DNA of 64,000 nucleotides from a virus (IMGVR_UViG_3300046786_000293:64001-128000), one strand, 5' to 3'. Shown: positions 53,785-58,699, numbered from the stretch's first letter. Notes: a model not told the origin generated them from the sequence alone. Translations and numbers: made by a program.

Positions 53785-53890
53785 TATATAGAAACACACC
53801 ACCACGGCGTTATACTGCTGTATCGCAAGCAATACTACCATGTCTACCCACTTACATCTTTCGAATGGTGCATGTGATGTGTTTTTATAT
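53785..53890 (-). ncRNA. AU-stem-closed small RNA, family 2 copy 1
   Basis: AUAUAAAAACAC ... GUGUUUCUAUAU. Confidence 0.55.
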
Positions 53891-54044
53891 GGCGCAGGGC
53901 GAGGGATTCGAACCCTAAACAACTATATACTCACAGTGACCTACACGGCGGCGAAGCCCTCAGTTTGATATTGTATAAAGTCACTCATTTTCGCATTCTC
54001 CTCCGGGTCATGACTCCCTTTGGACACACCATGTGAGACCCCGC
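53890..54044 (-). ncRNA. 155-nt tRNA-like RNA (acceptor + T arm, G3-U70, internal ORF)
   Basis: GCGGGGU/GCCCUGC-G-CCA, T loop UUCGAAU, no normal D/anticodon arms. Confidence 0.7.
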
Positions 54045-54051
54045 ATAAACT

Positions 54052-54126
54052 TGGTGGACCAGCAGGGACTCGAACCCTGATTAACGACGTGCAAAGCCGC
54101 TGTAATTCCCTCTATACTACAAGCCC
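54052..54126 (-). tRNA. tRNA-Ala(UGC)
   Basis: Loop UUUGCAC, G3-U70, CCA. Confidence 0.9.
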
Positions 54127-54133
54127 ATTAATT

Positions 54134-54209
54134 TGGTATCGCGTACGGGAATCGAACCCGTCTAGCCACCTTGAAAGGGTAGTGACCTAACCCAGAAGTC
54201 CAACGCGAT
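54134..54209 (-). tRNA. tRNA-Glu(UUC)
   Basis: Loop CUUUCAA, CCA. Confidence 0.9.
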
Positions 54210-54215
54210 ATAATT

Positions 54216-54290
54216 TGGTACCCGAGAAAGGAATCGAACCTTAGGTCTTTCGATTATCAGTCGAATGCTCTACCATTGAGCTACCCGGGT
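54216..54290 (-). tRNA. tRNA-Ile(GAU)
   Basis: Loop CUGAUAA, CCA. Confidence 0.9.
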
Positions 54291-54298
54291 GCTAAACA

Positions 54299-54550
54299 TA
54301 AGGATGACAACTAGATTCTTCCACCACATACATTGGAAGCATTATCCGCAAATTATGCCGGCTGCGGTTATGATAACTTGGCTGTGTCGCATGTTCTTCC
54401 CTCGGATTAGGAGGGCATAGCTCGACAGTTGCTTATCTTAGGGTACGTGAGTAATAGAGCTACTTGTTTGCTACTAGGATAATTAGTCCCAACTCACTAG
54501 GATTTCGAGGCCCTAGCTTTCACACATCTCACATCCAATTGTCATTCTTA
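54299..54550 (-). ncRNA. Unassigned ~250-nt structured RNA
   Basis: 18-bp terminal stem UAAGAAUGACAAUUGGAU / AUCUAGUUGUCAUCCUUA, internal hairpins, no convincing ORF. Confidence 0.55.
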
Positions 54551-54558
54551 TGGTTATA

Positions 54559-54636
54559 CCATATAGAAACATACTGACGGGAGCTACCCTTAAAGCAGGC
54601 TTCGCTACCCTGCTAATACAATATGTTTTTATATAG
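54559..54636 (-). ncRNA. AU-stem-closed small RNA, family 2 copy 2
   Basis: CUAUAUAAAAACAUA ... UAUGUUUCUAUAUGG. Confidence 0.55.
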
Positions 54637-54637
54637 C

Positions 54638-54732
54638 AAACTCATTGCGGGCAGGACTCGAAACTGCATGTGGCGTTTATTTCCACTGGCCCCATAACGG
54701 GCCTATGTCTACCATTCCATCACCGCGAGTTC
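54638..54732 (-). pseudogene. Degenerate class II tRNA-like element
   Basis: D loop GGAAUGGUAGA, T loop UUCGAGU, variable arm GUGG/CCAC, aberrant anticodon loop GUUAUG, bulged acceptor, no CCA. Confidence 0.55.
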
Positions 54733-54780
54733 CTGAGGTTAATTACTCCCCAGTATGGGTGCTATCTGCAGATAACACTT

Positions 54781-54855
54781 ACCATATAGAAACACCCTAA
54801 GCAGGCAGGCCCTGCACGTTTCCCTGTGTTTTATTTTAAGGTGTTTTTATATGGT
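54781..54855 (-). ncRNA. AU-stem-closed small RNA, family 2 copy 3 (overlaps ACCA of tRNA-Lys)
   Basis: ACCAUAUAAAAACACC ... GGUGUUUCUAUAUGGU. Confidence 0.55.
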
Positions 54856-54926
54856 AGGGGCACAGGGAATCGAACCCTGATTTGCTGGTTAAAAGCCAGC
54901 TACTTTAGCCGCTAAGTTATACCCCC
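54852..54926 (-). tRNA. tRNA-Lys(UUU)
   Basis: Loop CUUUUAA, CCA. Confidence 0.9.
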
Positions 54927-54929
54927 ATA

Positions 54930-55004
54930 TGGTCCCTCCAGACAGATTCGAACTGTCACCTCATCGGGTAAGAGCCGAGTATGCTACCATAACACTTCGA
55001 AGGG
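54930..55004 (-). tRNA. tRNA-Lys(CUU)
   Basis: Loop CUCUUAC, CCA. Confidence 0.85.
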
Positions 55005-55082
55005 ATGGATTGTAAAAATTGTCTTTTACGTGCCATCCCGGACCATACAGGGTACAGGGATGACACTAACGTTTAGCACGTT

Positions 55083-55229
55083 TCATGTCAAATTCTCCAT
55101 TTTATAAAATTTTTGATTCTCCCGCTTACGCAGGGCCTTGTGGGGTTTGCGATGCTCGCCCGCACGTCTAAACAAAGCCGCGGCTACAAATTGATTGCGC
55201 TCACGCGGCAACTTTTGCATACGCTTCAT
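55083..55229 (-). CDS. Small highly basic protein (48 aa; not in ORF track)
   Basis: MKRMQKLPRERNQFVAAALFRRAGEHRKPHKALRKRENQKFYKMENLT; RBS AGGAG and perfect sigma70 promoter. Confidence 0.75.
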   Translation of the reverse strand: MKRMQKLPRERNQFVAAALFRRAGEHRKPHKALRKRENQKFYKMENLT

Positions 55230-55252
55230 TGCTTGCTCCTAACTAAAAACAT

Positions 55253-55281
55253 ATTATACAATAAATTGGATTTATTGTCAA
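55253..55281 (-). promoter_or_regulatory. sigma70 consensus promoter inside tRNA array
   Basis: TTGACA-17 nt-TATAAT. Confidence 0.85.
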
Positions 55282-55286
55282 CGAAT

Positions 55287-55378
55287 TGGTACCAGCGGAG
55301 GGGATCGAACCCTCTCAAGAACGCTAATCTGGCGCTAAAAGGCTTATAAGACCTCTCTGACTTCCAAGTCTCGCTGGC
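55287..55378 (-). tRNA. Atypical tRNA-Ile(UAU)
   Basis: Loop CUUAUAA, 7-bp anticodon stem, short D arm, long variable arm, A73-CCA. Confidence 0.7.
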
Positions 55379-55385
55379 ATTGTAA

Positions 55386-57171: not shown

Positions 57172-57178
57172 ATTATAA

Positions 57179-57235
57179 AACAGGATACATTTTTTCTTTT
57201 ATACCAAAAAAGTTAAAAGTTGCTGTTAGTATCCT
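57179..57235 (-). ncRNA. CAGCAA-module RNA F
   Basis: AGGAUAC-UAA-CAGCAA ... GUAUCCU-GUU. Confidence 0.7.
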
Positions 57236-57241
57236 AAAACT

Positions 57242-57317
57242 TGGTGGACCAGACAGGACTCGAACCCGCCACCCCCACGGTGCAAACGTGGTGCTCTCCC
57301 AGATGAGCTACTGGCCC
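57242..57317 (-). tRNA. tRNA-Ala(UGC), second copy
   Basis: Loop UUUGCAC, G3-U70, CCA. Confidence 0.92.
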
Positions 57318-57319
57318 TT

Positions 57320-57472
57320 TTAACTTGGAACTGTATGCGGAATGTATGGAACATTGCGAGGACCACCGTAAAGTTGTTCAAATAGCTTTTTAGCTTCTTT
57401 GACGTCAGATGCGTATATACGCACCTTTCTATCACCTTCAGGAGTCCTAACAGTAGTTTCGTACATTGGCAT
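57320..57472 (-). CDS. Small hypothetical protein
   Basis: MPMYETTVRTPEG..., 50 aa, RBS AAGGA; start refined to ATG 57472. Confidence 0.7.
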   Translation of the reverse strand: MPMYETTVRTPEGDRKVRIYASDVKEAKKLFEQLYGGPRNVPYIPHTVPS

Positions 57473-57487
57473 GCCAATTTCCTTAAA

Positions 57488-57564
57488 TGGTCGGAGTGGC
57501 AAGATTCGAACTCGCGACATCTTGGTCCCAAACCAAGCGGTCTACCAGGCTGACCTACACTCCG
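57488..57564 (-). tRNA. tRNA-Pro(UGG), second copy
   Basis: Loop UUUGGGA, C1-G72, CCA. Confidence 0.9.
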
Positions 57565-57569
57565 TATCC

Positions 57570-57644
57570 TGGTGCATCGTGAGAGGGTTGAACTCCCGAC
57601 CTTGGCCTTGTAAGGGCCCTGCTCTACCACTGAGCTAACGATGC
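57570..57644 (-). tRNA. tRNA-Val(UAC)
   Basis: Loop CUUACAA, CCA. Confidence 0.9.
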
Positions 57645-57649
57645 AAAAT

Positions 57650-57725
57650 TGGTTGCAGAGGAGGGAATCGAACCCCCGACCTCAAGGTTATGAGCCTTGC
57701 CAGATACCGCTTCTAACACTCTGCT
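57650..57725 (-). tRNA. tRNA-CAU, probable initiator fMet
   Basis: Loop CUCAUAA, A1-A72 mismatch, CCA. Confidence 0.8.
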
Positions 57726-58001
57726 TCAATTTTAAAAGTATACAACCTTTCACAAACAGAGCCTGTCTTATCAGCAGGGTGCGTTATACACTTATAAAAT
57801 TGTTCAGCTACCTACACCACATAGGCCCTAAACTGAGCGGTTGCTCTGTCCACGTTACCGTCGTTTGGTCCGGCTTACGTCAACCTAGGATATTCTCAAG
57901 TCGCCGATATAAAGCCGGCCTTGAAGTAGATCCTACGCACTCTGCTCTTATGGTTTGGCAATTACCCACTTCTTTAACGTAGAAGTGTAGACGGGGTCTG
58001 T

Positions 58002-58076
58002 ATGGAGCGGCGTGCGAGAATCGAACTCGCGACTTTAGCTTGGAAGGCTAAGGTAATACCATTTTACGAACGCCGC
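58002..58076 (-). tRNA. tRNA-Gly(UCC)
   Basis: Loop CUUCCAA, U73, CCA. Confidence 0.92.
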
Positions 58077-58093
58077 ACAATTTTACTTATGCT

Positions 58094-58177
58094 TGGTGCC
58101 CCAGGGGAGACTCGAACTCCCACGCCTCTCGACACTGGCTTCTAAGACCAGCGTGTCTACCATTCCACCACCAGGGC
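58094..58177 (-). tRNA. tRNA-Leu(UAG)
   Basis: Loop CUUAGAA, variable arm, CCA. Confidence 0.92.
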
Positions 58178-58183
58178 AAAATT

Positions 58184-58260
58184 TGGCTCCCCGAGCTGGG
58201 CTCGAACCAGCGACACCTTGATTAACAGTCAAGTGCTTCTACCAACTGAGCTATCAGGGA
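58184..58260 (-). tRNA. tRNA-Asn(GUU), second copy
   Basis: Loop CUGUUAA, G73, CCA. Confidence 0.92.
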
Positions 58261-58281
58261 ATAAATTTTTAACTTGTATCT

Positions 58282-58310
58282 ATTATATAGTCTAATCTAA
58301 TTTGTGTCAA
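58282..58310 (-). promoter_or_regulatory. sigma70 consensus promoter at head of main tRNA run
   Basis: TTGACA-17 nt-TATAAT. Confidence 0.85.
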
Positions 58311-58314
58311 CAAC

Positions 58315-58530
58315 TTATTTGATTTTTTTCAAATAGTCTCTACCAATTAGACCAGCTTCAATTTCTTCTAAGGCTGCAACGATCGGTGTGCTAGTTGTAG
58401 TAACCTTAGGTACTGCACCTTTACGCAGTTCACGAACACGTTGAGCTCCCACCAGGATCAAATCAAATCTGTTACCAATATTAGCAACACATTTGTCTGT
58501 GTCATTCATTACACGATTTTCTTTTTTCAT
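58315..58530 (-). CDS. rpoZ: RNA polymerase omega subunit homolog
   Basis: IGNRFDLILVGAQRVREL..G..P, ALEEIEAG. Confidence 0.85.
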   Translation of the reverse strand: MKKENRVMNDTDKCVANIGNRFDLILVGAQRVRELRKGAVPKVTTTSTPIVAALEEIEAGLIGRDYLKKIK

Positions 58531-58547
58531 AACTGCCTTAAAATTGT

Positions 58548-58577
58548 ATTATACTACCTATTGGTGGTTAGTGTCAA
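58548..58577 (-). promoter_or_regulatory. sigma70-type promoter for rpoZ
   Basis: TTGACA-18 nt-TATAAT. Confidence 0.75.
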
Positions 58578-58623
58578 GTCTAACGCGGAGCCCGTCAGAA
58601 GGACCCGGCAATTTTCATCCAAA

Positions 58624-58699
58624 GGTATTCTAAAACACACTTGATCCGTACCCTCTATCTGTTAGGACTGCTCTCGGGATTAGTATGTTTTAGAATACC
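58624..58699 (-). ncRNA. AU-stem-closed small RNA, family 2 divergent copy 6
   Basis: GGUAUUCUAAAACAUAC ... GUGUGUUUUAGAAUACC. Confidence 0.45.

Follow-up and report, generated by a model that had tools for sequence, protein, structure and literature searches.

Stem-closed small RNA cassettes, a widespread family in tRNA arrays of uncultivated phages from freshwater

The tRNA array of an uncultivated virus contains small RNA cassettes that belong to a widespread and apparently undescribed family occurring in the tRNA arrays of freshwater phages. The cassettes lie in a stretch of 64,000 nucleotides, hereafter the window, which comprises bases 64001-128000 of the 338.5-kb virus record IMGVR_UViG_3300046786_000293 (39% GC, CheckV completeness 97%). 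An original prediction, made from the sequence alone, had proposed that six elements in this window (here E1 to E6) share an AU-rich closing stem, the handle, around unrelated interiors, and that they represent a handle-plus-payload RNA family. This proposal holds: more than 200 copies are found in more than 120 phage contigs, and across the family the stem covaries, the orientation is fixed, the interiors are structured and the ACCA end of the upstream tRNA is sequestered. We lean modestly towards reading the elements as small stem-clamped RNAs that would be co-transcribed with the tRNAs on the minus strand and freed by tRNA-end processing, each made of a constant handle and an exchangeable interior.

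All six inverted repeats are present in the window (Table 1), with arms of 17-27 nt that are 74-94% complementary and, as had been described, a core AAACA(C/U)...(G/A)UGUUU common to all. On the minus strand the elements read (CC)AUAUAAAAACAC...GUGUUUCUAUAU(GG) or near variants. A covariance model, the check that had been suggested for the family, was trained on 60 copies, all from other phages, and scanned against the window. It recovered five of the six elements with E values of 3e-11 to 5e-4, and these score 5-16 bits higher on the minus (tRNA) strand than on the plus strand. The matches are E3 (54780-54856, 61.5 bits, E 3e-11), E2 (54557-54638, 49.8 bits, E 1.2e-8), E1 (53782-53894, 45.6 bits, E 1e-7), E5 (56848-56940, 39.2 bits, E 2.7e-6) and E6 (58623-58700, 29.0 bits, E 4.9e-4). 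E4 possesses a real stem of 19-25 bp (UAUAUGUAAGCA.../...UGUUUACAUAUA) around a 100-nt interior, and its membership in the family is weak because the model gives it just 9.8 bits (E 8.8). The mismatch that several copies were said to share lies at stem position 6, as A.C in three window copies and as U.U in E5, and comparison of the six interiors found no similarity among them. A bias towards the minus strand, which had been read from G-U wobbles, is also seen in the folds of five of the six elements, including E4 (-51.0 kcal/mol on the minus strand versus -39.7 on the plus strand), and is not seen for E3. A further hairpin at 57727-57802 was rejected as a family member in the scan of the window.

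The relation to tRNA ends that had been noticed for two elements is also borne out. E3 overlaps the ACCA of tRNA-Lys(UUU), and its stem opens with A73-C74-C75-A76 of this tRNA paired to UGGU, so that the reported ACCA/UGGU extension does run over the tRNA end. When tRNA-Lys and E3 are folded together the cloverleaf is kept and the 21-bp helix is placed right behind the acceptor stem (z -3.6); the interior class of E3 recurs in another locus (L102). E1 begins at the CCA of an upstream tRNA-like RNA, and tRNA-Pro is located 10 nt downstream of E1. This upstream RNA (about 53891-54051, minus strand) has a T arm and acceptor strand (53891-53930) and CCA, with no called tRNA body. E2 is not immediately behind a called tRNA, and its interior consists of two small hairpins; a contig from an RNA-type library (X4, 54476-54662) spans it with zero differences, which shows presence and not processing. 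E4 is directly upstream of tRNA-Glu(UUC) at 56630-56704. E5 sits in the 5' leader of a unit starting at a sigma-70 consensus promoter (57048-57020), while E6, which has no adjoining tRNA, lies between the upstream leader/open reading frame (ORF) unit and a promoter at 58577-58548. On the minus strand the same 5-bp GC hairpin, AUAUCCUGC-N6-GCAGG (CCUGC-N6-GCAGG), precedes both E5 (56939-56956) and E6 (58700-58717), which suggests that these two may belong to a sub-family of leader type, separate from copies located behind a CCA. Locus L059 has the handle variant of E5 too, there enclosing an interior whose class is otherwise found with the canonical handle.

Outside the window, the core pattern of the handle (12 nt, 30-60 nt, 12 nt) occurs in at least 120 IMG/VR contigs among the matches listed. 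Allowing two substitutions per arm, we collected 204 copies, 53-192 nt in length (median 78), in 121 stretches that together hold 1818 tRNA genes (median 15 per locus). Flanking CC...GG accompanies 110 of the 131 exact viral matches versus 1 of 44 pattern matches in bacterial genomes. The pattern was run on 596 Gb of bacterial and archaeal genomes, where it matched 45 times; 43 of these matches are generic AT-rich palindromes without CC...GG flanks, only one has such flanks and two are family-like. The latter two are on short contigs binned into metagenome-assembled genomes (Ca. Planktophila, with 9 tRNAs on 1.5 kb, and Komeilibacteria) and are no evidence about the host; on real bacterial chromosomes the family was not found by this pattern search. 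Searches of cultured phages (INPHARED; megablast and blastn with word size 11) returned only tRNA matches or chance matches of 24-28 nt, and no Rfam 15 family matches the elements (cmscan, E<=1, positions 46000-64000). The DNA metagenomes containing the stretch are from freshwater, estuary and aquatic sources. Literature searches found no description of such a family, and the text of a 2023 catalogue of viral structured RNAs (PMC10690425) contains no such motif.

Copies were oriented by their nearest tRNA and positions were numbered from A76 as 1. On the tRNA strand the handle consensus is 5' A-CCA-UAUAAAAACACAUU ... AGUGUGUUUCUAUAU-GGU 3', an AU-rich helix of 19-21 bp whose 5' arm, over 185 distinct copies, has the consensus CCAUAUAAAAACACAUU. 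Between positions -2 and 16, 93.9% of cells are paired, and 14 of the 19 pairs have changed on both sides versus 3.9 in shuffles, with none of 500 shuffles reaching the observed value. When one representative per interior class is counted, position 5 is AU (100) or UA (22) and is always paired (100% versus 68% shuffled), and position 16 shows six pair types, paired in 82% versus 46% shuffled. The irregularity at position 6 is kept across the family, as A.C in 110 of the 185 distinct copies (A-U in 33, G-C in 28), and U.U is found there in variant handles whose neighbouring pairs have changed as well. Position 14 is U.G in 120 copies, C-G in 33 and U-A in 30. Because positions 6 and 14 mirror each other they are uninformative on the strand; outside them G.U outnumbers A.C by 69 to 13, and all 119 asymmetric copies point in the same direction relative to the tRNAs, none being reversed. 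The handle is thus a helix on the tRNA strand. Its sequence is near-invariant even though the radical-SAM proteins of these phages are only about 44% identical, which argues for a sequence-specific partner.

The register of the helix with the tRNAs is equally regular. In 126 of 181 copies the first A of the element is A76 of the upstream tRNA, and in such copies the discriminator and CCA supply the outer four helix pairs, facing UGGU. The UGGU is retained even without a following tRNA, with C-G at positions 0 and -1 in 157-162 of 185 copies. The next tRNA begins right after the last U (+1) in 52 copies. With the last helix base at -1 of the downstream RNA and the outer pairs taken from the upstream CCA, a single closed hairpin thus makes up the entire spacer between two tRNAs. 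The elements are also unevenly distributed over tRNA species: 72 of the 128 copies that abut a tRNA follow Lys(UUU), 24 follow Gln(UUG) and 9 follow Glu(UUC), together 82%, and in these loci 68 of 90 Lys(UUU) genes carry an element, as do 22 of 81 Gln, 12 of 82 Glu and 0-5 of each other species, counts that are not independent events because the loci were chosen for the element and the phages are related. Different tRNAs follow Lys in different loci (Met, His, Leu, Ile, Asp, Trp and others), and the element therefore travels with the upstream tRNA.

A hairpin that fits exactly between A76 of one neighbour and +1 of the next, with the CCA sequestered, is what would be expected of pure punctuation. 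In that case the hairpins would do no more than direct cleavage and insulate neighbouring tRNAs so that each folds independently, and the interior would be drifting filler without function. In keeping with such a role, unrelated interiors occupy the same syntenic Lys(UUU)-Met(CAU) junction (19 classes in 25 loci) and the folding z-scores of interiors are weak. The interiors nevertheless do not behave as filler, which would be expected to shrink, whereas their median length is 49 nt (folded RNA of 30-100 nt). The 196 interiors fall into at least 125 classes without detectable similarity, their GC content is raised (49% versus 39% for the genome), and for 81 of 105 classes folding is more favourable in the sense of the tRNAs (p 1.7e-9). 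No inverted interior was ever found among the collected copies. Interior classes are kept across phages with compensatory changes: the class of E2, also present in L042, L048, L084 and L101, has five pairs changed on both sides, and another class has four compensatory pairs. Of the 24 classes with multiple members, 15 have copies behind tRNAs of different kinds. The T-loop motif GUUCGAA is present in 9 classes versus 0.3 expected, and in several it stands right before the 3' arm, as in a tRNA. Searches for an origin of the interiors in coding or other phage sequence found none, matches outside the elements being missed elements or T-arm-like 17-19-mers. Judged from their sequences, the interiors are more than random filler, and we regard punctuation alone as unlikely.

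The interiors are also swapped whole, without drift, between contigs whose flanks agree. L126 and L076 show no difference in either handle arm or in the flanks, over at least 160 nt to both sides, but their interiors, 41 and 48 nt long, are unrelated, with breakpoints at the inner ends of the handle arms. The L126 interior, which is behind tRNA-Gln, belongs to a class found elsewhere behind tRNA-Lys. In a second pair with 99% identical flanks (L021 and L060) the entire element differs, including a co-varying handle variant. As the simplest mechanism we infer patch recombination within the 17-20-nt arms, either during co-infection or between copies in one genome. In the only pair of a filled and an empty site (L091 and L108, respectively) a target duplication is absent, and the spacer of the empty site, GCUUUAUG, is similar to the end of the 3' arm. 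Short spacers between tRNA-Lys(UUU) and tRNA-His in L096, L021 and L108 (such as GUGUUCUUUGGU, GUUUAUG and GCUUUAUG) look like 3'-arm remnants, which suggests that elements may be lost by deletion of the 5' arm and interior. A tRNA-Arg in L089 that is seemingly enclosed by a handle was not relied on, as the arms are a weak two-mismatch AT-rich palindrome.

Exchange of whole elements and interiors, and the same interior at different sites, could also come from a DNA-level mobile element, either a transposon resembling miniature inverted-repeat transposable elements (MITEs) or a site for a hairpin-recognising recombinase, in which the handle would serve as terminal inverted repeats and any effects on RNA would be secondary. 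Integron attC sites, which are characterised by an R'/R'' core GTTRRRY / RYYYAAC and the tyrosine recombinase IntI, are imperfect hairpins like the elements of the family. In both, boxes in the stem are conserved, an irregularity marks the strand, the terminal structure is variable and of similar length (about 57-141 bp), and the hairpins are arranged in arrays. Here, in contrast, tRNA genes stand between the hairpins and the strand evidence points to the transcribed RNA strand, the arms ...GUGUUUCUAUAU have no GTTRRRY core, and the phage genome encodes no Phage_integrase domain. Bacterial MITEs (Correia/NEMIS, RUP, ERIC) are inverted-repeat hairpins with TA termini, A+T-rich and shorter than 200 bp, and their transcripts are RNase III substrates (PMC2229807). 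The family shares the short length (53-192 bp), the terminal inverted repeats (17-20 bp, near the 20-bp arms of MITEs), the TA-rich ends, the A+T-rich arms, co-transcription with neighbours and the long RNA hairpins, and HNH endonuclease genes are common in the arrays. MITEs, however, have a shared interior, are dispersed in both orientations and produce target duplications, whereas the copies described here have unrelated interiors, are confined to the tRNA island in one orientation with G.U exceeding A.C, and show no target-site duplication in the single informative pair, whose empty spacer looks like a decayed 3' arm. The helix covaries past the conserved arms, at positions 16-17, and a cognate transposase was not found among the genes of the phage itself (genome G000), which has no Pfam match to Phage_integrase, Y1_Tnp or DDE_3. 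A mobile DNA element is accordingly a distinctly improbable explanation.

The preferred tRNAs direct attention to a different kind of role. These three tRNAs (Lys, Gln and Glu) have in common a modified uridine at the wobble position, and they are classically attacked by anticodon nucleases such as PrrC and the zymocin gamma-toxin, and phage T4 repairs anticodon-nuclease damage with a set of ligase, kinase and phosphatase. The island around the present array encodes an Rnl1-like ligase, a PNK-like kinase, a phosphatase and a DUF2828/DUF7788 protein. The tRNA preference and the repair island are no more than suggestive of a link to tRNA-targeting defence. In one such reading the elements would be Y-RNA-like docking or decoy RNAs, whose handle would be recognised by a protein of the phage or host (the island's DUF2828/DUF7788 protein and a tRNA-directed nuclease of the host are examples) and whose interiors would be tRNA-like or other baits; the T-loop motifs directly before the 3' arm would suit this role. 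Among known systems Y RNAs are indeed the closest in design. In YrlA and YrlB (RF02553) the stem carries, on its 5' strand, the conserved motif GNCGAA(N)G / GGUCCGA that contacts Ro60 (Chen et al. 2014, PMC4201824). Like the family they are about 60-130 nt long, with a long stem formed by the ends that contains a conserved irregularity and with a variable, sometimes tRNA-like module, and they occur as several paralogues per genome, in RNA-repair neighbourhoods and in phages (RF02553, PMC4201824). The family nevertheless fails the sequence tests for Y RNAs. Its handle has a different sequence, without GNCGAA(N)G in the 5' arm (CCAUAUAAAAACACAUU), its stem continues, in a fixed register, from the CCA of a tRNA that lies upstream, and its interiors are far more diverse and exchangeable. 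YrlA gave no match on the six elements in the Rfam scan described above; a lone weak match at 55400-55467, with 33.4 bits versus a gathering score of 69, lies in another RNA. Genomes with Y RNAs have a Ro60/Rsr (TROVE) gene, usually adjacent to the RNA; here Pfam TROVE has no match in the 338-kb genome at E<=0.01. No protein family is a constant neighbour: in the 121 loci, which are short windows, none occurs in more than 26, and among the commonest are a PF04308 RNase H-like protein (26), dCMP/cytidine deaminase (20) and HNH (16). The interiors are not complementary to the upstream tRNA either (mean z -0.05, p 0.70). We therefore consider docking or decoy RNAs of this type a doubtful explanation.

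An extended version, to which we likewise assign a low probability, would combine these observations. The handle would be a socket on the CCA end of tRNAs that are anticodon-nuclease targets (Lys-UUU, Gln-UUG, Glu-UUC), and the interiors would be shuffled structured baits or inhibitors, some of them tRNA-like, directed against host RNA-directed defence or processing proteins. Recombination at the handles would then let co-infecting phages trade modules, and the elements would be RNA counter-defence cassettes.

The reading towards which we lean, stem-clamped RNAs freed from tRNA transcripts, would involve the following steps. RNase P cleavage at the downstream tRNA would free the 3' end of the element wherever a tRNA follows, and a host endonuclease (RNase III, or RNase E or Z) would free the 5' end and expose the CCA of the upstream tRNA. 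Given an AU-rich helix of 20 bp that contains one mismatch, RNase III would be the obvious choice. The product would be a hairpin with both ends locked in a helix, and hence shielded from exonucleases. The handle would act as a constant module for processing, stability or protein docking, and the interior as a variable functional module that is traded between handles. It is also possible that sequestration of the CCA gates tRNA maturation.

Parts of this scheme have precedents in stable-RNA operons. RNase III stalks enclose the rRNAs in rRNA operons, the early RNA of T7 has RNase III hairpins, and an internal mismatch is typical of phage sites. As in those stalks, flanking complementary sequences form a double-stranded helix of about 20 bp around a cargo in a polycistronic stable-RNA transcript (here 19-21 bp with one mismatch, supported by covariation). 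Unlike them, the stem sequence itself is near-invariant across diverged phages, the cargo is small and variable, and cleavage is a prediction. Non-tRNA small RNAs are also made from tRNA transcripts, as exemplified by the T4 stable RNAs species 1 and 2 from its tRNA cluster and by the E. coli spacer sponge RNA 3'ETS-leuZ. These resemble the proposed RNAs in arising through the tRNA processing machinery, as we suppose here, but each is a lone gene, and they neither have a handle in common nor form a repertoire of cassettes. The family would be best described as stem-closed modular small RNAs from stable-RNA operons, a kind with known members to which it apparently adds an undescribed one.

Several observations weigh against this reading. 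Across the helix the mature ends of the flanking tRNAs are 1 nt apart, whereas RNase III, cutting once, produces a stagger of 2 nt (a 2-nt 3' overhang). Three window copies (E4, E5 and E6) are in leaders and not behind a CCA, and tRNA-end processing is therefore not the whole story. Domain searches of the phage genome found no gene for RNase III, a dsRBD protein, an RNase Z-type enzyme or a CCA-adding enzyme. Interiors fold just modestly better than shuffled sequence (mean z -0.42). The dependence among the tRNA-preference counts and the lack of a constant neighbouring protein, both described above, count in the same direction. The RNA-type libraries (four runs) consist of contigs that may contain DNA and from which neither ends nor strand can be read, and stretches without cover in them are uninformative.

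Other RNAs are present in the same array. The gap between E2 and tRNA-Ile (54291-54558, 268 nt) contains by far the deepest stretch in the RNA-type libraries, at 54303-54546 on the minus strand, represented by an exactly matching 246-nt contig at depth 73 (X19) and at depth 667 in X20. It is probably an abundant stable RNA. The gap has no Rfam match, its ends are paired in the fold (z -1.4), and it has one relative, in L094 (76% identity). The 144 nt between E3 and E2 (54637-54780, minus strand) look like a CCA-less tRNA-like RNA that is not called by ARAGORN or Rfam, with a D-arm-like GGAAUGGUAG, an anticodon-like loop GUUAUGG (UAU), a long variable arm and a T-arm-like GCAGUUUCGAGUCCUGC. Another handle family, UUUUAGGAUAC...CAGCAAA...GUAUCCUGUUUU, fills tRNA spacers at 53540-53612, 55380-55509 and 57172-57241 and is found in many other loci (for example in spacers of L011, L052, L069 and L083). 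Further handle types are seen in L027 (CCAUUUAGUAGUAACACAG/CUGUGUUACUUCUAAAUGG) and, in one case, in L035. The arrays therefore contain stem-closed cassettes with handles of more than one family.

The array itself comprises 39 tRNA genes called by ARAGORN at 47.5-62.6 kb of the window, every one on the minus strand, and is divided into several units by minus-strand consensus sigma-70 promoters. By gene content, the ligase, kinase, phosphatase, DUF2828/DUF7788 and radical-SAM genes form a tRNA/RNA-repair-type island around it (Table 1), in a genome where domain searches found neither RtcB nor the PF04308 RNase H-like family. Relatives of the radical-SAM protein (25 loci, 31-46% identity) have no tRNAs nearby, so no orthologous islands were reached by this route. 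A tRNA with anticodon CUA, of the amber suppressor type, was called by ARAGORN on the plus strand distant from the array (G000:C1:183606-183679); the ORFs of the window nonetheless read well in table 11.

Table 1. Elements of the handle family and selected genes in the window
Feature	Position	Strand	Description
E1	53785-53890	minus	Inverted repeat I8, 53786-53802/53874-53890; canonical handle; 76-nt interior
E2	54559-54636	minus	Inverted repeat I1, 54550-54576/54619-54645; canonical handle
E3	54781-54855	minus	Inverted repeat I2, 54780-54800/54836-54856, 21 nt, 90%; canonical copy; 39-nt interior
tRNA-Lys(UUU)	54852-54926	minus	ARAGORN; Rfam tRNA 67.9 bits; 3' ACCA is the outer end of the E3 stem
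E4	56711-56845	minus	Inverted repeat I4, 56709-56727/56829-56847, 19 nt, 89%; divergent copy
E5	56850-56938	minus	Inverted repeat I7, 56850-56867/56921-56938; variant handle with G-C at position 5 and U.U at position 6
E6	58624-58699	minus	Inverted repeat I3, 58624-58641/58682-58699, 18 nt, 94%; variant handle GGUAUUCUAAAACA.../...UGUUUUAGAAUACC
DUF2828/DUF7788 protein	44894-46342		
Rnl1-like RNA ligase	48562-49470		
PNK-like P-loop kinase	49717-50169		
Dual-specificity phosphatase	50671-51177		
HNH endonuclease ORF	55621-55893	plus	Antisense within the tRNA array
Radical-SAM protein	59319-60854		511 aa

Phage tRNA arrays are commonly regarded as plain series of tRNAs; in the arrays studied here, much of what separates the tRNAs consists of conserved RNA genes. 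Three features of the family were not found described together: a near-invariant stem in register with the CCA of specific tRNAs, a very large repertoire of folded interiors, and the exchange of interiors between otherwise identical genomes. Since Lys, Gln and Glu tRNAs are preferred and genes for RNA ligase and kinase lie beside them, a link to tRNA-targeting defence can be tested directly. Should the RNAs be excised, the elements would be natural expression cassettes in which tRNA processing offers a general route to end-protected small RNAs, which would be a useful tool, and they would provide a lead to RNA-protein interactions in the contest between phage and host over tRNAs.

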